Of a DNA stretch of 64,000 nt, positions 5,733 through 29,962 are shown piece by piece (position 1 is the stretch's first letter; each line of letters starts with the position of its first letter). The DNA is from a virus (taxonomy: Duplodnaviria > Caudoviricetes), in the IMG/VR virus record IMGVR_UViG_3300037047_000162, positions 3,566 through 67,565 of that record; one strand, 5' to 3'. The notes beneath the pieces were generated by a model. The model had not been told where the DNA came from, searched no databases, and saw only the letters and a list, made by a program, of their open reading frames with translations. The translations under genes and the position numbers were made by a program.

Positions 5733-7322
5733 CTACGGTTTGAAGCACGCACCTCCACTCGCTTGTTGGCCGACGTACCAACCGTTGCTGATCGGTGGAT
5801 TACAGGTACATGTCTGCCCGTCGATGGGCCAAGAGTAACATTGATTGATTGTGAGATCCCAACTGCTGCCATTCCATGTCCACCAGCAGTCTCCGGCACA
5901 GTCGTAGACGCCATTGTCGGAATCGTTGCCGTCGCTGCCGGAAGAATCGCTGCTGTCGCTACTGGAATCGCTGGGCGGCTGGTCGCTGCTGGAATCGCTG
6001 CTGGAATCGCTGTTCGAGACGTCGTTCGAGTCGTTGTTCGAGTCGTTGTTCGAGTCGTCGGAATCGCTGGGCGGCTCGTCGCTGCCCGAATCACTGGGCC
6101 GTTGGTCGCTGCCGGAGTCGCTGGGCGGCTGGTCACTGCTGGAATCGCTGGATTCATCGCACGGTCCCCAGCACGTGCCCTCGACTATCTGACCGGTGTA
6201 ATCGGGAAGTTCCCCCGGCGGCTCGCAATAGCACGGCGCGGCACAGGTCGTACCATCTTCGAGAAGGTACCAGACGCCAGATCCACCGCTATACAGACAC
6301 GTGCCGTTACAGGGGCAAGGCGACTCGCTACCGGAGTCGCTCGGTGGCGCGTCGCTGCCGGAATCACTCGGTGGCTGGTTGCTGTCGGAATCGCTCGCGC
6401 TCGTGCTGTCGCTCGTCGAGTCCGAGCTGCTGTCGTCGCTGGATGAATCCGACCTGCTGTCGTCGCTTGATGAGTCGGAGCTGTCGGACGAATCGCTGGA
6501 CGAATCGCTGCTGCTGTCATCGCTCGACGAATCGCTGGACGAACTGCTTTCGTCACACGACGGGTCCAGGGCGAGGGGCAGCCAGTCGTCGCTGGGTTCG
6601 AGTCGGACGGTGGTGTTGGCTTCGATGGACTCACAGGTGGCGTTGTAGGCGGTGACGGTGAGAAACCTGCCCCAAGCATCCGTCAGCAGGCATTGCTGGC
6701 CGATGAAGCCGGTCGGGCCGTAGAGGCTGACCGGTCCGCTGCCGAGCATCAGGCAGCGTCGGCCGCGGCGGGCGGCGGGGATGCCCGATCGGCCGACTTT
6801 GGCGACCACGCTGCGATTGTCGGCGTGGCCGATCTTGATGTGGCAGAGCTGCTCGCCGGTGACCGTGGGCGCGTTCAGCAGCTCCATCGGTCCGAAGAGG
6901 CCCGACTGGACGGTCGAGCCGCCGTAGGGGAACGCTCGACGGTGCCAGGTGGCGATGACGTTGACGTAGGCGAGCGAGACGCCACTGATCTGGGCCGGTC
7001 CGATCTTGCCGGCGGGTAGCGGGTCGAGTAGGACGCAGAGGATGTAGTTGCGGTTGGCGTCGCCCAGGCCGGTGGCGGTGATCCAGGGATGCTCGCGGGT
7101 AAGCGTGGTCAGCAGTCGCGTCTTGGTCACGGCCAGCACGTCGCCGCGGCGTTTGTCGGTCCCGGAGGCGTTGCGGACCATGATCACGTCGGTTTCGACC
7201 GGCTGCTGGCGTTCCGGGGGCCGGTCCGAGCCACGCTGATACGCGGCGACCGCGGCTGCAGTCGCGTTGTGCTCGGCGGCGGTGGGCGGTTTCCAGGTCT
7301 GTTTTGGTCGAACTTTTCGCAT
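5733..7322 (-). CDS. Putative tail-tip/fibre protein with Ser/Asp-rich repeats and Cys-rich modules
   Basis: Follows the tail genes. Two long S/D tracts (SSDQPPSDSGSD units) alternate with CPCNGTC...CAAPCYC and CAGDCWW...CTCNPP modules. Confidence 0.7.
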   Translation of the reverse strand: MRKVRPKQTWKPPTAAEHNATAAAVAAYQRGSDRPPERQQPVETDVIMVRNASGTDKRRGDVLAVTKTRLLTTLTREHPWITATGLGDANRNYILCVLLDPLPAGKIGPAQISGVSLAYVNVIATWHRRAFPYGGSTVQSGLFGPMELLNAPTVTGEQLCHIKIGHADNRSVVAKVGRSGIPAARRGRRCLMLGSGPVSLYGPTGFIGQQCLLTDAWGRFLTVTAYNATCESIEANTTVRLEPSDDWLPLALDPSCDESSSSSDSSSDDSSSDSSSDSSDSSDSSSDDSRSDSSSDDSSSDSTSDSTSASDSDSNQPPSDSGSDAPPSDSGSESPCPCNGTCLYSGGSGVWYLLEDGTTCAAPCYCEPPGELPDYTGQIVEGTCWGPCDESSDSSSDQPPSDSGSDQRPSDSGSDEPPSDSDDSNNDSNNDSNDVSNSDSSSDSSSDQPPSDSSSDSSDSSGSDGNDSDNGVYDCAGDCWWTWNGSSWDLTINQCYSWPIDGQTCTCNPPISNGWYVGQQASGGACFKP

Positions 7323-7323
7323 G

Positions 7324-8157
7324 TCAACTCCAACCGAAAACGGACGAATAGACCTTGTGCGGCCGGGGGCGGATGATCTCGATGTATTTCAACTTCTTGG
7401 CGGCGTGGGTCTTGCCATCGCTGTTGGTCTCGGCGGCAGGCTGGTAGACGGGCGAGACGACATCGAAGCCGCTCTTGCTGGCGATCGTGATGCCGCCGAC
7501 AACGAGGTTCGTCACGTTGGGGCTGGACTCGAAGCTGTAGCTGGCCGTCGCTTCACACTCGGTTTGCGAGAAGTTGCCGCCCATGTAACGCAGCTCGCCG
7601 GGCTGGTAGCCCAGGAACACGTCGGCGTTGGGATAGCCGCGGAGCGTGCCGACATTGCGGATGTACGCGGCGTTCAGGAACGCCTGGGGATGACGGTACA
7701 TGACGGTGAAGCGGTCTTCGGCCACGGGTACTTCGCAGCCGGTCACCTCTTCGCCATTCCAGAAGACGCCGCCAGAATTAGGGCATGAGTCCACTGGGTA
7801 GCCGGCGATCCGTTCCCCGGCGGTGACGTGGACGTTTCCCACAGCCTGGTCCACGGTGATCTGGTACGTGCCCGTCTGCCGGTTGACGGGCGAATAGGTC
7901 ACGCTGATGTCGTAGTGCTGGGCGTAGACGTTTTCGTGCAGCTGGATCGAGTTCCAGAACAAGGTGCCCATGTCGGTGCCGTAGGTCGCATAGCCGCCGA
8001 CGATCAGGGCCATCACTTGCGACGAAAGCCAGTCGAAGCAGTCGCCGCCGTGGAGGTACGGCAGGGTGCCGAGGACCTCGAACTTGCGCACGATCGTGAG
8101 GTTCTCGCGATCGAGCGTGAGGTCGGAGCCGGTTTTCAGGCGGAGGGTGAGGTCCAT
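7324..8157 (-). CDS. Putative distal tail protein
   Basis: Immediately downstream of the tape measure gene; beta-rich composition. Confidence 0.55.
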   Translation of the reverse strand: MDLTLRLKTGSDLTLDRENLTIVRKFEVLGTLPYLHGGDCFDWLSSQVMALIVGGYATYGTDMGTLFWNSIQLHENVYAQHYDISVTYSPVNRQTGTYQITVDQAVGNVHVTAGERIAGYPVDSCPNSGGVFWNGEEVTGCEVPVAEDRFTVMYRHPQAFLNAAYIRNVGTLRGYPNADVFLGYQPGELRYMGGNFSQTECEATASYSFESSPNVTNLVVGGITIASKSGFDVVSPVYQPAAETNSDGKTHAAKKLKYIEIIRPRPHKVYSSVFGWS

Positions 8158-17355: not shown

Positions 17356-18708
17356 TTAATCGCACGGGACGCTGGCGTTGAAGGCGGCGAGGTAGGCGAG
17401 GTGTGCGTCGGGGTGCTGGACGACACAGGCTCGGGTGGCTTGGGCGAGGGTCTTGCCGGTTTGCTGCTCGGCTTCGATCAGCGCGTTCCAGTTGGCGATG
17501 GCGTCGGGGTCGATCGACGGCGAGCTTTTGCCGGTGGCTTTGGTGCCGACGGCCTCGACGCCGGGGCGCTGCTGGGCGGCGACGATCCGCCTGTTCTGCT
17601 CGGTCATCCAGGCGGTCTGCGCCTGGGCGAGGGTCGCGCCGGCGGCGAGCTGCGAACAGAGGAACGCCGGGTCCGCGCCGACACAGCCGGCGACGAGTTC
17701 CTGGTAGGACGCGGGACCGGCGACCGGGGGCTTGGCGAGTTGGGGTTGCGGGGCTGCGGGGGGCACTTCGATGGCCAGGGCGGCATCGACGGCCGTTTCG
17801 ACGAGCGAGGTTTGCATCGGTTCTCTCCTTGGTTTGACTTGGGATTGGAGTTCGGATAACGCCTGGTCGAAGCTGCCGATGGCGTCGATCAGGCCCAGTG
17901 TTTTGGCTTCGGCGGCGAGGTACGCGCGGCCGTCGGCCAGCTCGCGGACCCGCGCGGCGGTGAGCATCGAGCGGCCTGCGGTTACGCCAGCCAGGAAATA
18001 CTCGTTCAGCCCGTCCACCGTTCGTTGCATCTCGGTCAGATGCTCGGCGGTGATCTCGGTACCGGGGGTGCCGGCGCCTTTGAAGGCCCCGGCGCGGATG
18101 ACGTGGACCTTCACACCCTCCATCGCGGCCATGCCGCTGGTGTCCTGGACCACGCCATACGTGCCGATCGAGCCGATCAGGGCCGTTTCGTTGGCGATGA
18201 TCCGCGAGGCTTGCGAGGCCGCCCAGTAGGCGGCGCTGGCGGCCATGTCCTCGACGTAGGCCCAGACGGGTTTCTTGGCCTTGGCGGCGGCGATCTCGTC
18301 GGCCAGCTCTTTCGTGCCGGCAGCCGTGCCGCCGGGTGAGTCGATCCGCAGTAGGATGGCGCCGATGTCGGGGTCACTTGCGGCGGCTCGGATGTCGCGG
18401 CGGGCCTGGACGGTGGATGTGCCGCCGCCCATGCTGGCCTGCTGCTTCATCAGCTTGCCGGTCAAGCTAATCATCGCCACGTCGCCGGTTGTGTCGCTGC
18501 GTGAAAAGGGGACAGGACCCTTTTGCCGGAACGGCCCGGAGGGTGCTTCGCACAAAAGGGTCCTGTCCCCTTTTCGCGCAGCCTGCTGTTGCAGATGGAT
18601 GTGCAAGTCCGTCTTGCGGAACAGCTCGAGCGTTTGCGTGAGCGCGTCGGGCAGGATCGCCCACGGGCCGATCCACTGCTCGTAGTAGGGAACTTGCAGT
18701 TCAGTCAT
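17356..18708 (-). CDS. S49 (SppA / lambda gpC-like) prohead protease with C-terminal scaffold region
   Basis: ILLRIDSPGG, MAASAAYWAAS, IGSIG motifs. Confidence 0.92.
   Translation of the reverse strand: MTELQVPYYEQWIGPWAILPDALTQTLELFRKTDLHIHLQQQAARKGDRTLLCEAPSGPFRQKGPVPFSRSDTTGDVAMISLTGKLMKQQASMGGGTSTVQARRDIRAAASDPDIGAILLRIDSPGGTAAGTKELADEIAAAKAKKPVWAYVEDMAASAAYWAASQASRIIANETALIGSIGTYGVVQDTSGMAAMEGVKVHVIRAGAFKGAGTPGTEITAEHLTEMQRTVDGLNEYFLAGVTAGRSMLTAARVRELADGRAYLAAEAKTLGLIDAIGSFDQALSELQSQVKPRREPMQTSLVETAVDAALAIEVPPAAPQPQLAKPPVAGPASYQELVAGCVGADPAFLCSQLAAGATLAQAQTAWMTEQNRRIVAAQQRPGVEAVGTKATGKSSPSIDPDAIANWNALIEAEQQTGKTLAQATRACVVQHPDAHLAYLAAFNASVPCD
18503..18575. repeat. Perfect 23-bp inverted repeat (MITE/REP-like) inserted in frame in the S49 gene
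   Basis: GAAAAGGGGACAGGACCCTTTTG ... CAAAAGGGTCCTGTCCCCTTTTC with a 27-nt loop; translated KGDRTLLCEAPSGPFRQKGPVPF. Confidence 0.9.
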
Positions 18709-20374
18709 CGTCACCCTCGTTGGCTGGTTTCGGTTCGTTGGCCGGGGCGGGTTTCGAGGCGGGGCGTGACCGGCTCTTGTTGCCGGGCGTCCCGCGCTGC
18801 TGGACGCTGACCTGCACGCCTTCGGGCATCGGCCAGGTCAGGATGTCCCGCCAGGTGAGATCGAGCCCCAGGCGGGCGTTCAGCTCTTCGGCCTTGGCGT
18901 GGGCCAGCTCGATCCGCGCCCCGTGGTCGGCGACGATCTCTTCCGTCAGGTCCCCGAAGTCGATCCCGCGCGAGGCCGCCAGCCGCCGCGGGGAGGACAG
19001 CAATCCCTTGGCCTGCAGGATGTCAGCCGTCGCGTCGTCCACCGGTTGGATGTAGGGCAGCTCCTGAGCGTGCCACACGTGGGCGAACGGGTTGACTTCG
19101 CCGGCCGGGATGTAGCCGAGGGACGCGCGGAGGGAATCGGCACGCTCGACGGCCTTGCGAAGCGCACTGTCGGTCACGGCCCACTGGCGGACTTTCCATT
19201 CGTACACGGGACCGTGGAACGAGGTCATCATCCAGGACTGGATTTCACGCCACCGCTGGCGGGCCTGGTCGATCGCGCCCCGGAAGCCGCTGTAGTTCGT
19301 CTCGCTGGCGTCCAGCAGGAACACGCACAGCGGCAGGTCCAGATTCACGGCGAGGATGCCCAGCAGCATCTGCGAGTGCTCGAAGAATTGCAGCCCCGGC
19401 AGCGTCGGGACGAAGCCCCGCAGCCGCTCGCCCTTGTACCCGTAAATCTCGAACCCGGGCGCGATGTCGGTCAGGGTCCGCGTCTCGCCGTCCGGCCGCG
19501 TTTCGGTGGTTTCGCTGTGGTCCCCACCGCCGGCGAATGGCAGGACCGGGGCTCCGGCGTCCATTTCGCGGAGGATCGTGTAGCAGGATTGGATCTTGGC
19601 GGCCACCAGGTTGGCGAACTGCAGGTCGTCCCAGTGGTCGGCCGTGTCCGCCATCGGGGCGAAGGCCGTCACACCGCGGGTCTGGCTGCGGCGGTCCGGC
19701 AGGTAGTGGTGGAACACCTGGCGGCGTCCTCGCTGGTCGCGAGCGGGGATCTGCGTGATGTCGTTCACGCGGGTGACCGAGCGCCAGGGCTCGATGTCTT
19801 CCTTCGTGAACCAGTAGGCCAGGCGTCGGCGCCGTTCGTCCTGCTGGACCCCATGCACGACGTTCTTGGTCGTGTTGCGAGGCGTCTTGAGCCGATGCCC
19901 TTCCTGCGATTCGATCCCGCCGTCTCGATTCGGCAGCGAGCAGATGTCGCCGTCGATGATGACGTGCTGGAGGGTCAGCTTCTCCATCCCGTGGAAGTCG
20001 AGTTCCTGCTGATCGTCGCAGGCTTCGGGCGAGCGGGACCATTCGGCCCAGCGGTAGCCGTTCACGTCGTCGATGGCCTTGTCGCCGCTGTCGCTGTCCA
20101 GCACGAAGCCGCGGCCCACGACGTTGGCGACCAGGCGGCGGACGCCCTGCATGACCAGCGGGTTGTTGCGGGTCATTTCGCGGGCCATTTCCATCGCGCC
20201 GAAGTAGGCGGACTCGGTGCGGTAGTGGTAGTCGGCGTGGGAGCCCAGCGTCATGATGCCGGTCTTGGTCCGCTTGTACCGCGAGGCTTTCCCGATATCG
20301 TAGTCGGACTTCAGCTCGGCGAACTGCTCCAGGATGCTGCCCGCCATGCTTTGTGGTCGGCGTTTTGCAGTCAT
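18701..20374 (-). CDS. Portal protein (lambda gpB family)
   Basis: AREMTRNNP, IDGDI, QTRGVTAFAP, DASETNYSG.R, PYIQPVDD; ATGA overlap sets the start at 20374. Confidence 0.92.
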   Translation of the reverse strand: MTAKRRPQSMAGSILEQFAELKSDYDIGKASRYKRTKTGIMTLGSHADYHYRTESAYFGAMEMAREMTRNNPLVMQGVRRLVANVVGRGFVLDSDSGDKAIDDVNGYRWAEWSRSPEACDDQQELDFHGMEKLTLQHVIIDGDICSLPNRDGGIESQEGHRLKTPRNTTKNVVHGVQQDERRRRLAYWFTKEDIEPWRSVTRVNDITQIPARDQRGRRQVFHHYLPDRRSQTRGVTAFAPMADTADHWDDLQFANLVAAKIQSCYTILREMDAGAPVLPFAGGGDHSETTETRPDGETRTLTDIAPGFEIYGYKGERLRGFVPTLPGLQFFEHSQMLLGILAVNLDLPLCVFLLDASETNYSGFRGAIDQARQRWREIQSWMMTSFHGPVYEWKVRQWAVTDSALRKAVERADSLRASLGYIPAGEVNPFAHVWHAQELPYIQPVDDATADILQAKGLLSSPRRLAASRGIDFGDLTEEIVADHGARIELAHAKAEELNARLGLDLTWRDILTWPMPEGVQVSVQQRGTPGNKSRSRPASKPAPANEPKPANEGDDD

Positions 20375-20664
20375 CCTCGGAAGTTCTCCATCGACAGGTA
20401 ACGGACCCGCCCGCTGCCAGCGCCCGTGGTTGCGGGGTGGGCATCTTTCCACCGCTGGGCCGCTTCGATTTCGGCTTGCAGGGATTCGCGGGTGAACGTC
20501 TGCGGGCCACGCCCGGCGGACAGGGGCAGCCGATTGCGCAGGATGCGGCAGGCGGTGATGAAGGCGTCGGCCTTCGCGCGGCTGCTGTCCTCTTCATACG
20601 AAGCGTTGTCGTCGTATGCGGCGAGGACTTGGGCGTCGGTCGAATTGCTGCTCAGCGTGGCCAT
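20371..20664 (-). CDS. gpW-like head completion protein
   Basis: Small ORF between terminase and portal positions, translationally coupled to the portal gene. Confidence 0.6.
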   Translation of the reverse strand: MATLSSNSTDAQVLAAYDDNASYEEDSSRAKADAFITACRILRNRLPLSAGRGPQTFTRESLQAEIEAAQRWKDAHPATTGAGSGRVRYLSMENFRG

Positions 20665-21020
20665 GAACTGAGCATGAAGAAATCCGGGCGGGGCGTAAAG
20701 ACAAATGGGGGTTATACCGGAGGTATATCTGGCGGGACCGCAGAATCGACGCTGGCGGACGTGGGGGATCCTGCGAGCGCGTTCTGCCGCCGAGACCAGC
20801 GGCAGAATACTCACACCCGTTCGGATGGGATTGGACGCAAGGCACAGCGATTCCGCCGCTTAGGATGTCCAGCTGTTTACTGGCGATTGCGTATTCTGCC
20901 GCCGGAAAGTCACTCCATAAAACCGATGGCCATTCGAGGGGCCGCTGGAGAGGTATCGCCTGCATGGTATATGGACCACATAAAACGCGTACCCAGTCGA
21001 AGGGAATTCGCCGCAACAGC

Positions 21021-21049
21021 TTGCCAGACAGCCGCTTCTTCGCTAGGCT
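21021..21049 (+). promoter_or_regulatory. Sigma70-like promoter upstream of the cassette array (Pc-like)
   Basis: TTGCCA-N17-TAGGCT. Confidence 0.5.
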
Positions 21050-21232
21050 CATGACTCGGTCGATGAGCGTTCTGTGGCCAAAATCGCCGCAGTAACTAAT
21101 TATTGGTCCCGTAGAATTAGAAGTTCGTCCGCAGAACCCGGGGCCGCTGAAATCTCCGTTGGCCAGACGCCACGGTTCCCGGCATCGCTGGCTTCGGCCG
21201 GATCTGTCCGCTATCGCATCCTCTGTGTCCTA

Positions 21233-21302
21233 TTGAACAGGAGGCAACAAAGACAACAGAGGCATGCCCTGGTCTCCGTTACCTTTGTTTCCTCCTGTTC
21301 AA
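21233..21302. repeat. Long imperfect hairpin (REP-like) inside cassette 1
   Basis: TTGAACAGGAGGCAACAAAG...CTTTGTTTCCTCCTGTTCAA. Confidence 0.8.
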
Positions 21303-21521
21303 AATTTACCTGCCCTTGGCCGCGCCGTTGGCGATTCCAAGAAAAAATCCTGTTGAAAGACCGTCCGGTCGGCTACGCTGCAGGGCTCCGATGTACTCTT
21401 CCCGCTATCGCATTCCCGGAGCCGCAGAAAAACGTGCGGCTCGTCTAGCAAAACCAAGCCATCCCGGCGATGGCCCGGCCTGCCCTGAATGTCCCGCGTC
21501 CACGTCCACGGCAAAAGACGA

Positions 21522-21550
21522 TTGCCGCCGCGCCGGCCGTGCGGTAAGAT
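21522..21550 (+). promoter_or_regulatory. Sigma70-like promoter inside cassette 1, pointing at cassette 2
   Basis: TTGCCG-N17-TAAGAT. Confidence 0.55.
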
Positions 21551-21611
21551 GACGGTCGTTCGACTGGGCGACGGTCGCCCAGTCCCGTGCCGGCCGCGGA
21601 CGAACCGTGCG

Positions 21612-21701
21612 GACGAACCAAACGATGCACGCCAGCGGCGGATGGGATCGGGCGGCATGGAAAGCGTTTTGACCGCCGCGGCGTGATCGCGGTCGTTATG
21701 T
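21612..21701 (+). other. attC site of cassette 1
   Basis: R'' GACGAAC; arm GAT(G)CACGCC(A)GCGGCGG pairs with CCGCCGCGGCGTGATC with two extrahelical bases; R' GTTATGT. Confidence 0.92.
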
Positions 21702-21725
21702 CCCTTAACAGCTTTGAGACCCACC

Positions 21726-22196
21726 ATGTATCGAATTCTTGCATGTCTACTTGCTGCGTCGGCATTGATCGGATGCGGCGAAAGGCCGACGAGTCAGGAC
21801 CCGCTGGCGACGCCATCCCGCACGTCCGCACCACCGCCCACCGTCGTCCTCGAAGAGGCGAACGAACCCGTCGCCACGAACGTCACGGCCGAGCTAACGA
21901 CCGAACAGACTGACTTTGGCAATGAATGGAAAGCGTCATCCACGGAAGAGCGTCGAAGAATGGCGGATTTGGCCAAGGTGTACCCGCTATTTCAAGGCGC
22001 AACGAAGCCTCAGATCAAGGCGGCGCTCGGCGTGCCTTCCGGGGCGGGGATTGACCGATTCGGTGATGACGTGATGCGCTACGAACTTGGGGATGTGCCG
22101 GGCGCCGACGGCGGCGGTAAGTACCATTTGACGTTTGTCTTCAAAGATGACGTGGTTGTTACTGTAATGGGAAACTTTATCTCGATATCGCCTTGA
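21726..22196 (+). CDS. Lipoprotein with BamE/SmpA-like C-terminal domain
   Basis: Signal peptide with lipobox LIGC; TKPQIKAALGVP...MRYELG...LTFVFKDDVVVTV. Confidence 0.7.
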   Translation: MYRILACLLAASALIGCGERPTSQDPLATPSRTSAPPPTVVLEEANEPVATNVTAELTTEQTDFGNEWKASSTEERRRMADLAKVYPLFQGATKPQIKAALGVPSGAGIDRFGDDVMRYELGDVPGADGGGKYHLTFVFKDDVVVTVMGNFISISP

Positions 22197-22224
22197 ATCG
22201 ATTGGACATAACCAGTCGCTGGAC

Positions 22225-23031
22225 GTGCGGACTGGAAATGGTTTGTTGACAAGCGGGTGTGAACCCCGCCGGAGTAGCTCCTAGCCAGAGGCTCCGTATC
22301 GAGTGTTGCAGCGTTGGTATAAGGGCGGCAAAGTGGGTGGTAACCAGACACTCCTCCGAAGTCCAGCGTTGAAGCGTACACAGAAAGGACGCGAGGATGA
22401 ATGGACCGGGCGTAGCCGTCCGGCTGTGAATGGTATTGAGCTCCGAAATCTTGGTATCTATCGGATCCTGCCCAGGGCGTGTCCATACCTGAAGGCCACA
22501 CCGATCACCGCGTCTTGGCAAGCGGTGATCGGAGACCCGGAGTCGAAGGCCCATTCGCGTGTCACATCATGTCAGCAAGGCAACCAGTGAGGCCCTGAAG
22601 TTCTTGGACGCATCATGAAGACCAATCATGCCCGTCCGAGTATGCCCGACAAGCCTCGCAAGCAAGGGAGGCAAATGACAACAGGGAGTCCGAAGGATGC
22701 GAAGTACCGTTGAAGCTCGACAACCGATCGAGTGGATCGAAGCCGGGTAATGCCGGTGCAGGGAAGGCATCCAAGCCAGTGCGCGTGGCGACCGAGACGC
22801 CCTCCGGACACAGTGCCGGACTTTGGGCGATTTTCCGGCGTCCACGCAGCGGGCGTCAAGCCCGCAGGTGCTGGTGGGGAGCCGGGTGCGTTAACGGCGC
22901 ACGCCCGGTTCTGGGAGGGGCCAGGGGTCAATTGGACAGGGATCAAATATTGTGACACCACCAGAGGAAACGGGTGGCAACGGGGAATACAAACTTCGTC
23001 CTAAATCGCAGAGCCGTACACCCTACTCGCC
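22225..23031 (+). ncRNA. Group II intron without an intron-encoded protein (~807 nt)
   Basis: 5' GTGCG; DII/DIII-type GAAGTACCGTTGAAG...CCGGGTAATGCCGG.GCAGGGAAGG; domain V GAGCCGGGTGCGTTAACGGCGCACGCCCGGTTC (22879-22911, AGC triad); DVI ending CCCTACTCGCC. No RT ORF is present. Confidence 0.9.
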
Positions 23032-23111
23032 GGGAGCGGCGGCATCCCGGCTGTTTGAAATGGAAGCGTCATGGGCCGCCGCCCCCGTGATGCCTATTCG
23101 TTCCGCGTCGG

Positions 23112-23552
23112 CTATGGCCTTTCCTGTAGCTGCTCGATCAGCCACACCACGGCGTCGTTGCGATTGAAGACTTTTCGACCGTTGGCGAGCTTCGCCCCGG
23201 TCTCCTTCAGGCCCCACCAGAGGCGATGTAGGAGGTTGCGGCCGGTGTGACTGCGGCTCTTGATGAGCTGCAGGTTGACGTGGGCTTTGCAGAACGAGGG
23301 CGTGCCGTCCAGGCCGGGCGGGTTGTCGCACAACGGGACCTCGATCAGCACGGTTTTGATCTGGCGGATGATTTGCTGGACCGACGGAGCTGGCTGGGCC
23401 GGCTCGACGGGGGGCGGCACGTCGGCTTGCTGGTCGGTCAGCGTGATGTCGGGCAGAGGCTCGGGCTGCGCCAGTTCCGGGGCGGACTCCGGCGTGGGGC
23501 TGGGCAGGGGCGTAACGGCTAACGAGTCTTTGTTTACGGTCACTCGGGGCAT
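23112..23552 (-). CDS. Hypothetical phage protein
   Basis: ORF downstream of the terminase with a Pro-rich N-terminus; function unknown. Confidence 0.55.
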   Translation of the reverse strand: MPRVTVNKDSLAVTPLPSPTPESAPELAQPEPLPDITLTDQQADVPPPVEPAQPAPSVQQIIRQIKTVLIEVPLCDNPPGLDGTPSFCKAHVNLQLIKSRSHTGRNLLHRLWWGLKETGAKLANGRKVFNRNDAVVWLIEQLQERP

Positions 23553-23578: not shown

Positions 23579-23630
23579 AAAAAGGGGGACAGGCACCGAT
23601 CGTCCTGAACGGAGCCAGTCCCCGTTTTTC
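23579..23630. repeat. Imperfect GGGGACAGG...CCAGTCCCC palindrome related to the 18503 element
   Basis: AAAAAGGGGGACAGGCACC ... GGAGCCAGTCCCCGTTTTT, intergenic. Confidence 0.7.
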
Positions 23631-25833
23631 AACGGGGTTGAATCCATGAAGTTCCGGACGGGGTGTCTTGGTCTCGGGGCGGGGGTTTTTTGGCGGGTTT
23701 GGTCGGGGAGTTTTGTTTGGGGCGGATGGTCCACAGGCCCCAGATGGTGCGGGCGGCGATGGCGTAGGCGGTGGCGTCGAGGTAGTGGTTGGCTTTCTGG
23801 CTGCGGAGGTGGCCGGGGCGGGAGCCTTCGGGGACCCAGCGGTACGAGCCGTTGGGTTGCTTCTGCCACTCTTCGCTGAGGATGTGGCCGGCGTAGTTCT
23901 GGTGCCGCTGCCATTTCTCGCGGCCGGCTTCGTCGCGCGGGGGTGTGAACAGGGCGAGGCTGCCGACGGTGCCGAACGGCTGGAGGAAGCCGTGGTGAAC
24001 TTTCAGCTTCCAGGCGTCGGCGTCCAGGTCGGCGAGCCAGATGCCGTTGTTGTAGGACAGGTTGCACTCGGGGAGGGGCACTACGGTCTGGCTGGCGTTC
24101 CGCTGCTGCCACGGCGAGCGGCCTTTGCAGGGGAGGATGCCGCGGAAGCCGGCCTGGGCAGCCAGGATGTAGACGGGCTCGACGCCCCATTGCTTGTCTT
24201 TCCAGCCGCTGTCAATCAGCGTCAGGTCGGGGACCCAGCCGGTGCCTTCGCGGTCGTCGAGCTGGCCCCAGGGATGCGTGCGGATGCCGTCCCACCAGGT
24301 TTGCAGGCCGTCCAAGACGAGCTTTTCGCAGGCGGCGGCCGGGCGGCCCTCGGTGGCGAAGGGGACGAACGAGAAGTCGATGATGCTGCCGGCCGCGGCG
24401 TCGGACCAGGCGATGGTCACCACGTGCAGGCCGTTTAGGTTCACGTCGGCGCCGCAGGTCAGGGCGATCGTGTCGTCGGGGACCACGCCGCGTTCGTGGC
24501 CGGTGCGGCAGTTGGCGCGGATGTGGTACGTCGTCAGATACAGCTGCTGGGCGTCGACTTCGGCGGGCGGATCGTTCTGGTACTCGGTCAGGAAATGCTC
24601 CAGGCCGCGGTCGGCGATGATATTGTAGGCGTGCTGGAGCGACGAGTTTTCCAGGGGCGTGCCGTCGGGGGCCGGGTCGGTGATGTACCGCGACGGGTTG
24701 CCCGTGACGGCGCCGGCGTCCATTTCGGCTCGGTGGTCGAGGTAGAACTGGTTCGCCCCGCGGGCCGTGTCGTCGCCGGTGTTCTGGTTGGTCTGCCGAG
24801 CTTCGATGTAGCGGTCCCAGAGGTCCTTGCGGTCCGGCCAGACGATGATGAACTGCATGCGACGGCCCTTCCAGGACGGTTTGCGGGCGCGGTCGATGTA
24901 GGTGGCCGAGAGGCTGTAGCTGCTCATCGTCGTGGTGAGCATCACGCGGGCCAGCCGCTTGCCGGGGCCGCCCAGTCCGGCCAGGTCTGCTTCGATCGTG
25001 CGGGCGCGGAGGTCCGTCTGGACGCCGCTGCGGGCCGAGTCGCGGGTTTCCGGATCGTCGATGATCACCAGATCGGGGCGTTTGGTGCCGACCAGCACGC
25101 CGCGGATCGCGGAGTCGAGCCCGCGGGTGGTGATGACGGCCCCGCTGCCCAGGGACTGTTGGCCGGGGCGCAGACGCGGATCCCAATGGTCCGGCACGCG
25201 GACGGTGGGCAGGACGATGTAATCCTGCGCCCACTTCAGAAACGTCCGCTTGCCGTTGGCCGTCTGCGTGGCTCCCCGCTGGGCGGTTCCGTCCAGGGCC
25301 AGGATCGGATCGCAGATTTCGGGGTAGTCGTCGGCCAGGGCCTGGTTGCGCTCGAGCTGGTACTTGATGTTGGCCAGGATCTGCTCGGCGTTGGGGCCGG
25401 TGGCGGCGGCGATCAGCGGGAACGAGAGAATCCCGTGCATCACGCAGTAGATCGTCACGCACTGGACGATCGAGGTCTTGCCCTCGCCGCGCGGGGCGGC
25501 AATCGCCTGGTCGCCGCCGTAGCGGGCCGCGTTCAGGATGGCGGCGACCATTTCCCGGCGTTGGTCGGTCCAGTCGCCCCAGAACACGTCGGGGAAGTAG
25601 CAGGTCAGGAACGCGTAGATGTCTGCCGAGTTGGCCAGGCGGCGCTGGACGTCGGCCGGATCGCGGATCTTGACGTCCTTCAGCGATGCCCGGATCTTGC
25701 GTTTGCGCAGGGCGTCGGCCACGCGGATGCCGGCCTTCTTGTCGTCGCCGGCCAGGCCGGTGATTTGCTCGACCTGCCGCTTCAAGTCGGAAACCGACTG
25801 CTGGCGTTTCTGGATTTCGGCTTTGAGCGTCAT
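23629..25833 (-). CDS. Large terminase subunit (lambda GpA-like)
   Basis: Walker A APRGEGKTS, VIIDDPET, GADVN nuclease motif, ANHYLDATAYA. Confidence 0.9.
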   Translation of the reverse strand: MTLKAEIQKRQQSVSDLKRQVEQITGLAGDDKKAGIRVADALRKRKIRASLKDVKIRDPADVQRRLANSADIYAFLTCYFPDVFWGDWTDQRREMVAAILNAARYGGDQAIAAPRGEGKTSIVQCVTIYCVMHGILSFPLIAAATGPNAEQILANIKYQLERNQALADDYPEICDPILALDGTAQRGATQTANGKRTFLKWAQDYIVLPTVRVPDHWDPRLRPGQQSLGSGAVITTRGLDSAIRGVLVGTKRPDLVIIDDPETRDSARSGVQTDLRARTIEADLAGLGGPGKRLARVMLTTTMSSYSLSATYIDRARKPSWKGRRMQFIIVWPDRKDLWDRYIEARQTNQNTGDDTARGANQFYLDHRAEMDAGAVTGNPSRYITDPAPDGTPLENSSLQHAYNIIADRGLEHFLTEYQNDPPAEVDAQQLYLTTYHIRANCRTGHERGVVPDDTIALTCGADVNLNGLHVVTIAWSDAAAGSIIDFSFVPFATEGRPAAACEKLVLDGLQTWWDGIRTHPWGQLDDREGTGWVPDLTLIDSGWKDKQWGVEPVYILAAQAGFRGILPCKGRSPWQQRNASQTVVPLPECNLSYNNGIWLADLDADAWKLKVHHGFLQPFGTVGSLALFTPPRDEAGREKWQRHQNYAGHILSEEWQKQPNGSYRWVPEGSRPGHLRSQKANHYLDATAYAIAARTIWGLWTIRPKQNSPTKPAKKPPPRDQDTPSGTSWIQPR

Positions 25834-25840
25834 GGTCGTA

Positions 25841-25914
25841 GGTCGGAAGTCGGAAGTCGGAGGGCAGAGGGCAGGGCGAGTGGTGCTTGGTGCTTGGTGC
25901 TTGGTGCTTGGTTT
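25841..25914. repeat. Heptameric tandem repeats (GTCGGAA, GGTGCTT x4)
   Basis: Read directly; similar heptamer tracts at 8161-8192, 33677-33711 and 34269-34300. Confidence 0.75.
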
Positions 25915-25919
25915 GGGCG

Positions 25920-26015
25920 GCTGGGATTCGTTTTGGCTGCGTTGGGGGTGGTTTGGGGGTTCTGACTGCTGGTTTTCGTTTGGTTGCGTGGGAAGCGACG
26001 TTTTGCTCGTGGAAA
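25920..26015. repeat. ~95-bp dispersed element, second copy at 32309-32404
   Basis: Shared GCTGGGATTCGTTyTGGCTGCGTTGG...GGGGGTTCTGA...GCGTGGG...CGACGTTTTGCTCGTGGAAA. Confidence 0.8.
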
Positions 26016-26515
26016 CCGGCGGCTGGCGACCGCTGGGGCTGCCGGAGGGGCATTGGTTGCCGGGGTTTGACAAAAAAAGCCGCATTCCCGACGGGACGCG
26101 GCTACGAAAAAAGGGAGCGGCCGCGCCTCGTGGTGAGGCGTGCAACTCCCCATGATGTTAATCTAGCATGTACCGGGAGTGTTTTGCAAGGCAGTCCGAA
26201 AGAAGCGGGGCCTGACCGTCAGCATGTTCTGTAGGTCGATGCCGTCCTTGCTCCACCACTTCCACCGTAGTTCAGCTTTCAGTTCGACGAGTTCTTCTTC
26301 CATCGCCTTGGCATACCGTTGCAGCCACTGGTTTGGCAATATCGCGTACACGTTCCGTGCCCCGCCGACGTCCCCGGCCGTCAAAGTGCTGTTGGCTAAG
26401 GAGCAAGGCCAGTGGAAGGTAGAGCGGTTGACAGTGGAGTGAGTCTTCCGATTTGCTATACTGCCAGCCAGCGATGTCTCTCCCGCAGGTTTCCTTCAAT
26501 CCCCGGCAGCTGAGC

Positions 26516-29500
26516 ATGGACGAGCAAAAGATTCAGAAATTCATCCAACGTTGGTCGAACTCCGGCGGCGCGGAACGGGCCAATTATCAACTGTTCCTCT
26601 CCGAACTGTGCGACGTGCTGCAGGTCGCCAGGCCGGAGCCGACGGTCGAGGACGACGCCCGCAATGCGTACGTCTTTGAACGCAACGTACTGTTCGACAA
26701 TCTGGATGGCACCCACACGACGCGGCGGATCGATCTGTACAAGCGGGGGTGTTTTGTCCTGGAGTCGAAACAAGGCGTCTTGCAGCACGACGCCGCGCCG
26801 GTCCTGTCGGCTCGGCAGCAGGAACTGCGGGCCAAACGCAAACGGGGGCACGGCACGCGCGGCACGGCGGCTTGGGATGACGCCATGTTCCGCGCCCGTG
26901 GCCAGGCCGAGCAGTACGCCCGCGCCTTATCGCCCGCCGAAGGCCGCCCGCCGTTCGTCGTGGTGGTCGATGTCGGCCACTCGATCGAGTTGTTCGCCGA
27001 GTTCTCGCAAACCGGCGGGACCTACGTGCCGTTTCCCGACCCAAAATCGCACCGCATCCGCCTGGACGAATTGGCGGACGCCGAAGTCCGCGAGCGGCTG
27101 CGTCAGGTCTGGACGGAGCCGCTGAGTTTGGACCCCGCCCGCCGTTCGGCCCGCGTCACCCGCGAGATCGCCGCCAAGCTCGCCGAGTTGGCCAAGTCGC
27201 TCGAAGCGGCCGGCCACCACGCCGACGACGTCGCCCAGTTCCTGATGCGCTGCCTGTTCACCATGTTCGCCGAAGACGTCGAACTGCTGCCGCGGGACTC
27301 GTTCCGCCGCCTGCTGTGCAGCATCGACGACCTGTCGCATTTCGTGCCGCTGGCCGAGGAGTTGTGGCGGACCATGAACCGCGGCGGGTTCTCCAGCCTG
27401 CTGCGGACCAGCTTGCTGCACTTCAACGGCGGCCTGTTCGCCGACCCGTCCGCCCTGGCGTTGACGCGGGACCAGTTGGACCTGTTGATTGAAGCGGCCG
27501 GCGCCGACTGGAAGGACGTCGAGCCGGCGATCTTCGGCACCCTTCTGGAACGCGCCCTCGACTCGGTCGAACGGCACAAGCTGGGCGCGCACTACACGCC
27601 GCGGGCCTACGTGGAACGGCTGGTGATCCCAACCGTGATCCAGCCGCTGCGGGACGAGTGGGACGCCGTCCGCACGGCGGCGGTGACGCACGCCCGGGAC
27701 GGCGACCGCAAGGCAGCGGTGGCCGAGCTGGAGGCGTTTCACGACCGGCTGTGTGATGTGCGGGTGTTAGACCCAGCCTGCGGCTCGGGCAATTTTCTGT
27801 ACGTCACGCTCGAACATCTCAAGCGGCTGGAGGGCGAACTGTTTGCGACCTGGGAGAGCATCGCCGAGCGGCAGGCGCGGCTCGAAGGCGGCCATACCGT
27901 CGATCCGCACCAACTGTTGGGCATCGAGATCAACCCGCGGGCCGCCGCGATCGCCGAACTGGTGTTGTGGATCGGCTATCTGCAATGGCACTTCCGCACC
28001 CACGGCCGCGTGAATCCGCCGGAGCCGGTGATCAAGAACTTCAAGAACATCGAGTGCCGCGACGCCGTGCTCAGCTGGTCCAGCAAGCAGCCCGAACTCG
28101 ACGAGCATGGGAAGCCCGTCACCCATTGGGACGGCCGCACCACCAAACCGCACCCAGTGACCGGCGAAGAAGTGCCTGACGAAAACGCCCGCGTGCTGTC
28201 GTTCCGGTACCTGAACCCGAAGAAGGCGGAATGGCCGGAGGCGGAGTTCATTGTGGGGAATCCGCCGTTTGTGGGCGTCGCGAGAATGCGGGAAGCGTTC
28301 GGCGATGGGTACGTAACGACGTTGCGGCAGACGTATTCAGAGCTTCCCGAGTCATGCGACTATGTCATGTACTGGTGGCACAAGGCGGCGGAATTGACTC
28401 GCACTGGTGCCGTGCGGCAGTTCGGCTTCATCGCCACAAACAGTCTGAGGCAAACGTTCAATCGACGGGTCATTCAGCCTCACCTGGAGTCTAACCCTCC
28501 GTTGTCAATCGTCTTTGCGATTCCTGACCACCCCTGGGTCGATTCGGCGTTGGGCGCGGCGGTGCGCATCTCAATGACCGTGGGATGCTGTGGCGAAAAC
28601 GACGGCAAGTTGTCCGTCGTGACAGAGGAAGTTGATCGAGGTGAGATTGGAGCTGAAACCACCGTGGTGACACGAACTGGCAAAGTTCACGCCAATCTTA
28701 CCTTGGGGGTCAACGTGGATCTCGCCGAGAGTCTGCGGGCCAATTCCGACCTCAGCAATCGTGGCGTATCCCTTTTCGGAGCCGGCTTCATCGTGACACC
28801 GGACGAAGCCAAGCGGTTGGGCCTTGGTACGACGCCGGGACTGGAACGTCACATCCGCCACTATCGCAACGGACGAGACCTGACGCAGACATCTCGCCAC
28901 GTGATGGTAATTGACCTTTTCCAATTGAAGGCCGACGAGGTTCGCCAGCGATTCCCTGAAGTGTATCAATGGCTGTACGAGCGAGTGAAACCCGAACGCG
29001 ACCACAATAACCGCGCATCGAGGCGCGACAACTGGTGGCTGTTTGGCGAAACGAATCCCAAATTACGACAACAGCTTGCAGGGCTGAAACGCTACATCGC
29101 CTCGGTTGAAACTGCAAAGCATCGTTTATTTCAGTTTCTCGACGAATCAATTCTTCCGGATAACAAGCTCGTCAACATTGCCTTGGATGATGCCTACTAC
29201 CTTGGCCTATTGTCGTCGCACACTCATGTTTGCTGGGCGTTGGCTAGTGGAAGCTGGCTGGGGGTTGGCAACGACCCGGTCTACGTCAAGTCGCTCTGCT
29301 TCGAGGCGTTTCCTTTCCCCGACCCCACCGACACCCAGAAATCCCGCATCCGCGCTCTGGGCGAGCAATTGGACGCTCACCGCAAGCGGCAGCAGGAGTC
29401 GCATCCCAAGCTGACGATGACCGGGATGTACAACGTGTTGGAAAAGCTGCGGGCGGACCAACGGCTGGACGCGAAGGAGCAGGCGATCCACGAGCAGGGG

Positions 29501-29962
29501 CTGGTCTCGGTGCTGCGGCAGATCCACGGCGAGTTAGATGCGGCGGTGGCAGACGCTTACGGCTGGCCGGTTGACTTGACCGACGAGCAGATCCTGGAAC
29601 GGCTAGTGGCCTTGAATCAACAGCGGGCCGAAGAAGAGCGTCGCGGCCTGATTCGCTGGTTGCGCCCCGAGTTCCAGAACCCGGAAGGCCGGACTCAACA
29701 AGCCATCGCCGCCGGGGAAACCGAGACGCCCACGACCGCAAAGAAGGCCGAGACAGCCAAGCGGCCCTGGCCCAAGTCGCTGTCCGCCCAAGCCGCCGCG
29801 GTCCAGACCACGCTGGCCGAACTAGCCGCGCCAGCCGACGAGGTCCAAATCGCCAAACGCTTTACCGCCGCCAACAAGGACCGCATCGCCGAACTGCTGG
29901 AAACCCTCTCGTCGCTAGGCAAAGCCCGCCAACTGGACGACGGCCGCTATGTGCCCATGTGA
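26516..29962 (+). CDS. MmeI-like Type IIL/IIG restriction-modification fusion
   Basis: N-terminal [15 protein letters not shown] (PD-(D/E)xK), [24 protein letters not shown]-like C-terminus. Confidence 0.9.

Follow-up and report, generated by a model that had tools for sequence, protein, structure and literature searches.

A group II intron without a reverse transcriptase gene in an attC site of a phage-borne cassette array, and its probable Planctomycetota lineage

The cassette slot of the phage and its interrupted attC site

The analysed stretch of DNA (64,000 nucleotides, here called the window) is contained in a 67.5-kb IMG/VR virus record. A lambda-like head module lies on the minus strand of the window. 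It includes an S49 protease (17356-18714), the portal gene (18701-20452), a gene for a 146-aa protein (23112-23552) and the large terminase (23629-26145). The terminase gene is adjoined on the plus strand (26453-29962) by a gene for an MmeI-type restriction-modification fusion protein of 1169 aa, with all four MmeI domains. The record encodes two ordinary tyrosine recombinases. An integron integrase was not found in it (TIGR02249, 23 bits vs. a cut-off of 265), and a PF00078 profile search across the whole 67.5 kb found no reverse transcriptase (RT). In terminase searches, the best hits in Planctomycete genomes were only 33-36% matches, a weak pointer to the host, and the host was not revealed by a portal protein search of the atlas. 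Nucleotide searches gave no match in phages and, in plasmids, nothing beyond a match of 85 nt in Clostridium.

Between the portal gene and the 146-aa gene there is a cargo slot (window 20730-23100), in which the GC content is below that of the phage and the phage-type GC3 signal is absent. Three further phages, L004, L005 and L006, are ~90% identical to the window in the terminase, the 146-aa gene and the portal. Their cargo in the same slot (L004:5563-9290, L005:1656-5402 and L006:2919-5774) is entirely unlike that of the window, with homology breaking at 20728-21124 and at 23098-23128. The slot is hypervariable, and each of the four phages carries its own cargo. G|TT-type junctions delimit the cargo in L004 and in the window (at 21124 and 23100), as they would in a cassette array lacking an integrase. 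Because the phage has no integron integrase, the array is CALIN-like. Both attC sites and integrase-less arrays have been reported in phages before (PMC9892861). In a phage variant from a groundwater run, a different last attC (...GGCCGCCGCCGGTTGAA) is joined at window position 23098, which indicates cassette turnover at that junction.

Two attC sites of this array, both on the plus strand, were analysed. The first belongs to the preceding cassette, is intact (21616-21697, 82 nt) and served as the in-window reference; it fits exactly the motif of arrays found beside intI. The second belongs to the last cassette, whose ORF (21714-22196, plus strand) encodes 156-160 aa of no known family. This ORF has a coding-like codon-position composition, a GC content below that of the phage, and homologues. 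The attC that follows is interrupted by the intron. Its 5' arm, the 5' exon of the intron (22205-22224), is composed of the R'' box GACATAAC (22205-12), a spacer (22213-17) and the L'' box (22218-24), with the intron-binding sequence IBS1, TGGAC, at 22220-24. The remainder of the site, the 3' exon (23032-23106), was recognised from its sequence, from A+4 and G+5 of the 3' exon consensus and from the point at which homology to related phages resumes (23098-23112). It contains a stem (23032-43 pairing with 23075-86), the L' box GTGAT (23087-91), a spacer (23092-99) and the R' box GTTCCGC (23100-06).

Joining 22224 to 23032 yields AAC-CAGTCGC-TGGAC-GGGAG-stem-CCCC-GTGAT-N8-GTT, an attC of 86 nt, within the accepted range of 57-141 nt. 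The L box pairs at only three of five positions, and the restored site has an extra or mismatched A at 23035 (+4) and an extra G at -4. The start of the last cassette, GTTATGTC (21694-21701), is exactly complementary to the R'' box of that cassette. The same is true of the preceding cassette, which starts with GTTCGTCCGC (21124-33) and has the R'' box GCGGACGAAC (21609-18). Complementarity between a cassette start and its own R'' (the G|TTRRRY rule) was found in L004 as well.

Integron integrases (362-433 bits, cut-off 265) are encoded in all five Planctomycete genomes in which the nearest relatives of the intron reside. In three of the five, a site of 82-84 nt, AAC-N7-TG(N)AC-SGGAG-stem-CCCC-GTGAT-N6-7-GTT, forms arrays upstream of intI (20 kb each). 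The general motif, with the window included, is AAC-N7-TGNAC-SGGAG...GTGAT-N6-8-GTT. In these three arrays (L224, L225 and L226), 6, 9 and 15 sites were located on the strand leading away from intI, vs. 0, 2 and 0 on the other strand and ~1 in shuffled sequences. In 20 of 25 cassettes, the longest ORF likewise ran away from intI, and it often ended 1-30 nt ahead of R''. Both in these arrays and in the intact site of the window, the L box has as its extra base a conserved coding-strand G (AT[G]CAC with GTGAT), which is C on the bottom strand. In the textbook attC, the extra G is on the bottom strand. Measured against that rule, the coding-strand G of the Planctomycete sites counts against the attC reading. 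Judged by its sequence as a whole, the interrupted site is an attC.

The intron, its ends and its class

Positions 22225-23031 of the window (plus strand, 807 nt) are a group II intron without an RT gene, as delimited by Rfam model RF02005, foreign flanks and homology to relatives. An ORF-less group II intron had been proposed here by the first-pass annotation, and the Rfam scan bore this out: RF02005 (group-II-D1D4-6) matched the domain I core (22260-22552) with 111.4 bits (E 1e-30, cut-off 49). The intron starts with GTGCG (22225-22229), which fits the group II GUGYG. Domain V (DV, 22879-22911) is 33 nt long and has an AGC triad, an AC bulge and a 5-nt terminal loop; the loop, UAACG, was identical across 22/22 copies. 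It is followed by an extended domain VI (DVI, 22915-23028) with a bulged branch A at 23025, the 7th base from the 3' end of the intron. Both the long DVI and this branch point, already suspected from the letters, were recovered in a consensus fold of 22 copies, in which compensatory changes occurred at 17 of 39 pairs over ~117 nt. The score with RF00029, 34.5 bits, was under its cut-off of 40 because the DVI is ~117 nt long. When DV and DVI of the window were folded as a single sequence, the result was no better than shuffles (z = -0.8) and DV was mis-paired, and the comparative fold was used instead. Three DVI pairs are broken in the window copy (22921-23 with 23018-21), beside the basal/branch helix.

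Domain IV holds a relic of the RT N-terminus (22615-22713, plus strand), as identified by comparison with the full-length relatives L089, L074 and L092. It consists of 32 codons (MKTNH..SMPDK..KQGRQ) and a stop, after which ~1.3 kb of the ORF is deleted. Together with the empty RT search of the record, this upholds the earlier statement that the intron has no RT ORF.

The ends were located with Logan contigs from three groundwater DNA runs. In these, foreign 5' flanks stopped at 22220-22223 and a foreign 3' flank began immediately past 23031. Relatives outside the lineage terminate in ...CUACUCGAC, so homology sets the last intron base at 23031, and the intron ends with CC in place of the group II 3'-terminal AY. 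Ends of CC or CG were found throughout the lineage, and the outside relatives end with AC. The CC end and boundaries that restore an attC, both read from the sequence in the first pass, were thereby confirmed. Six contigs encoding an identical cassette protein all had the intron 5' end after the same exon. Five of these, all short, broke 28-110 nt into the intron, which implies that the intron is repeated in those samples.

The RNA is probably IIB-like, and class-E-like in its RNA and RT traits, rather than IIC. All scanned RT relatives carry RF02005-type RNA. In relatives from outside Planctomycetota, DVI is short, the exons are unrelated and of homing type, and only one intron follows a hairpin, which argues that the RNA class is not the hairpin-targeting IIC. 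The RTs of solved IIA, IIB and IIC introns (PDB) were about equally distant from the RT of the lineage. Published descriptions of IIE/IIF introns give them a 5-nt DV loop and a compact ribozyme resembling IIB (PMC3753933); of the class E/IIE traits, the lineage has the 5-nt DV loop and an RT without a D/En domain. Relatives from Sinorhizobium and Clostridium appear to fit class E (PMC5894124).

Relatives, target site and exon recognition

Full-length relatives encoding an RT, the search for which had been recommended in the first pass, were found, and they use the same attC target. They are 2064-2109 nt long, with an RT of ~510 aa. The RTs of two of them, L089 and L060, have the Pfam domain RVT_1 and a weak GIIM only, with no endonuclease domain (D/En). 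Among the genomes searched, RTs at 61-80% identity were present in Planctomycetota only (Ca. Kuenenia, Planctomycetaceae, Novipirellula and Pirellulaceae), and identity fell to <=50% in Firmicutes, Acidobacteriota and others. Several copies of the intron 5' part (9-20 matched pieces) are present in each of the five Planctomycete genomes, some of them beside intI. In a Pirellulaceae genome, two full-length introns of the lineage (L226:5132-5280 and 7209-7357) lie within the cassette array, ~12-14 kb from intI and on the same strand as the attC sites. A twintron of 4121 nt (L019) was also seen, in which domain IV of a lineage member is occupied by a second, different group II intron that encodes a 440-aa RT with a strong GIIM. 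The lineage is large, apparently undescribed, and Planctomycete. The literature search found no paper joining Planctomycetes, attC and group II introns. Exact patterns of the intron's DV, 5' end and 3' end had no match in viral contigs.

ORF-less copies were common and fell into size classes of 384, 724-809 and 842-900 nt. Six of them (the window, L027, L041, L077, L018 and L079) occupy six different sites, are collinear through the deletion in domain IV and are 87-96% identical. Six sites with a shared deletion argue that one derivative multiplied and spread in trans, as had been supposed for the window intron. A second ORF-less group (L039, L049 and L086) shares another junction, and L083 is deleted close by. 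In the Thermosynechococcus elongatus family, ORF-less group II deletion derivatives that have kept the ribozyme proliferate using the RT of autonomous relatives. The present case differs from that family in that the targets are integron attC sites and that one copy is phage-borne. In the phage L004, another attC of this slot holds a diverged ORF-less intron of RF02005 type (72 bits; L004:7149-8154, minus strand of that locus), in the orientation of the window plus strand. It is located directly 5' of the hairpin ACGCG[A]GGCGGCG, and its 5' boundary is uncertain. This intron appears decayed: its DV triad reads AAC, many of its pairs are broken and a clear GUGYG is missing.

The first 21 nt of the intron had more than 120 occurrences in JGI metagenome contigs, from which a consensus was built on 73 non-redundant 5' exons and 27 3' exons. 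AAC was present at -15 to -13 in 60 of the 73 5' exons, and T-5, G-4, A-2 and C-1 were each present in 67-70 of them. The 3' exons, a hairpin plus GTGAT..GTT, had A+4 (22/27) and G+5 (20/27). The consensus places the insertion point 12 nt past the AAC of R'', where L'' meets the variable stem, on the cassette-coding strand. That a non-IIC lineage targets attC, as had been proposed, is supported by this single L'' consensus of 73 insertion sites and by the homing-type RF02005 relatives. The proposed co-orientation was likewise recovered, the intron strand being the cassette-coding strand. Upstream of 47 metagenome sites, the ORF on the same strand was longer than that on the opposite strand in 30, which is a weak orientation test; orientation was judged relative to intI and by the cassette ORFs instead.

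The exon-binding sequence EBS1 is GUCCA (22481-22485, plus strand), in the terminal loop of the hairpin 22470-22497, and it is the perfect complement of the exon UGGAC. Across the lineage, this loop reads GU(N)CA, and covariation links the base at its centre to exon position -3. The pairs observed were G:C 19, U:A 9, U:G 3 and C:G 1, with 10 mismatches (Fisher p = 0.006, main classes). The window copy alone has GUCCA, matching its unusual exon. Two other exon-binding segments had been suggested for the window and were not retained. The segment GTCCAGCG (22361-68) was rejected, as it forms one side of a helix, covaries with 22310-18 and remains unchanged in copies with other exons; the loop GTCTTG of the stem 22501-32 gave way to GUCCA as the true EBS1. 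Neither an EBS2 nor an EBS3 could be separated from the attC's own conservation. The conserved AAC of R'' and A+4/G+5 may reflect that conservation and not recognition by the intron. A few ectopic copies, in sense orientation, were seen in protein-coding genes containing TG(N)AC: L143:3633-5704 is inserted behind codon 2 of a short-chain dehydrogenase gene, and L075 lies in a kinase-like gene.

The known attC-specialised group II introns are the IIC-attC introns, which insert into the bottom strand at R'' TTGT/T, antisense to the cassettes (PMC3001079, PMC7923331). Like the present lineage, they (S.ma.I2, E.c.I7, Kl.pn.I1 and Ge.s.I1) have an endonuclease-less RT, are specialised on attC and insert near its 5' end. 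However, they use the folded attC as an upstream stem-loop, whereas in the present lineage the other arm of the hairpin is downstream. The lineage further differs from them by the coding strand, the L''/stem position, the RF02005-type RNA, the 5-nt DV loop and the 117-nt DVI. The window intron is neither on the bottom strand and antisense nor at an R'' TTGT/T after a stem-loop. Introns of other classes in print near attC are truncated class E introns in CALIN, one IIB1 and one odd IIC (PMC7923331). The truncated ones are H.ha.F1/F2, in a Halorhodospira CALIN (PMC7923331). Class E introns, including these, share with the lineage the 5-nt DV loop, the endonuclease-less RT, the compact IIB-like ribozyme and the association with cassette arrays (PMC7923331, PMC3753933). 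The published class E cases are 5'-truncated fragments without a defined target rule, whereas the present lineage, probably of class E, has a precise target and an EBS1. UHB.I2 (IIB1/CL1) and the Enterobacter cloacae IIC intron in an attC top strand are cassette-sense, like the window intron (cited in PMC7923331), but they are single cases of other classes, and UHB.I2 is located after the attC, not inside it. The IS1111-attC elements (ISPa21 and ISPst6; PMC3001079) are attC-specialised like the lineage, but they are DNA transposons and insert antisense.

Origin, activity and consequences of the insertion

The reading that we favour, with a probability of roughly 0.85, is that the window intron is a non-autonomous deletion derivative of a ~2.07-kb, IIB-like and probably class E intron of Planctomycetota, which homes to the top strand of attC at L''|stem and receives its RT in trans. 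Target recognition would depend mainly on the EBS1 loop GU(N)CA, pairing over 5-6 bp with UG(N')AC of L''. Reverse splicing and retrohoming would be carried out by an RNP with a trans-acting RT/maturase, supplied by full-length copies in host genomes. The intron would be co-transcribed with the cassette, which makes its splicing from the RNA possible. With the intron in place, L'' is parted from the rest of the attC, and this should block integrase recombination at the site.

Three other explanations of the locus have far less in their favour. An ordinary IIC-attC intron of the S.ma.I2 type would also be found in an attC, and, like class C RTs, that of the lineage is without an endonuclease domain. 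This reading is hardly tenable. The insertion is on the coding strand and not the bottom strand, at L''|stem and not R'' TTGT/T, and no stem-loop lies directly upstream; related RNAs belong to ordinary homing introns, whose exons are diverse. A DV of 33 nt with a loop of 5 nt and an RT of ~510 aa also speak against it. Slightly less remote, and still highly improbable, is that the hairpin is a terminator or a REP-like repeat and the position of the intron incidental. The location of the intron between convergent genes, in a phage without IntI, would agree with this. However, the same motif recurs in intI-side arrays with cassette-sized spacing and co-oriented ORFs, each cassette start complements its own R'' box, and 73 independent insertions have a common spacing to AAC. 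It is also very unlikely that the ORF was lost separately at each site after insertion of a full-length intron, with no mobilisation in trans. The several size classes of ORF-less copies could be taken in this sense, but six copies at six sites are collinear over the whole deletion region, and L039, L049 and L086 share a second junction, with L083 deleted nearby.

Present activity was considered from contigs. No contig skipping 22225-23031, as an empty site or as spliced exons, was present in three DNA runs and one RNA run, and contigs cannot show absence. In an ice metatranscriptome compared with window 22224-23005, contigs covered the intron only and came from relatives. One of these RNA-library contigs had an intron 3' end (...CUACUCGCC, ...CTCTACTCGCC) joined head-to-tail to GTGCGG, which could be an intron circle or tandem copies. 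The same head-to-tail arrangement exists in DNA (L050:2597-2640), and since tandem copies occur in DNA, the RNA contig proves nothing.

It is quite possible, though slightly less probable than not, that the window copy is an inert relic: an old insertion in a chromosomal attC, carried into the phage with its cassette, which now neither splices nor moves. Three of its DVI pairs are broken, and decay is plain in the intron of the related phage L004, which lacks GUGYG and whose triad is AAC. The ORF-less subfamily is 87-96% identical, so that its burst would be old. Moreover, the intron is past a stop codon, and splicing would therefore not be under selection. Against this, the 5' GUGCG, the AGC triad, the AC bulge, the branch A and the basal DVI helix are all intact, and the unique EBS1 GUCCA exactly fits the unusual exon UGGAC.

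Alongside the derivation from a Planctomycetota intron favoured above, a broader picture can be drawn, to which we give a little less than an even chance. The introns may form a class-E-like lineage of their own in Planctomycete integrons, recognising L'' on the coding strand and able to splice because they are co-transcribed with the cassettes, unlike the silent antisense IIC-attC introns. Their MITE-like ORF-less mini-introns may have spread through cassette arrays, and may reversibly disable single attC sites and travel into phages along with cassettes.

In print, attC targeting by group II introns is the property of one monophyletic IIC subgroup, which inserts antisense and is reported to be untranscribed in its host. 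Here, a second, apparently unrelated lineage reaches attC by another rule, using the coding strand, the L'' box and a covarying EBS1, which would be a case of convergent retroelement specialisation on integron sites. The case adds a Planctomycete lineage that has its own target site and a long DVI, and of which one member is phage-borne. The locus documents that integron cassettes, parasites included, moved into a phage genome. Splicing from cassette transcripts would be possible in principle, and RNA-based ideas on cassette formation and repair thus become testable, as does the idea that introns switch single attC sites off.
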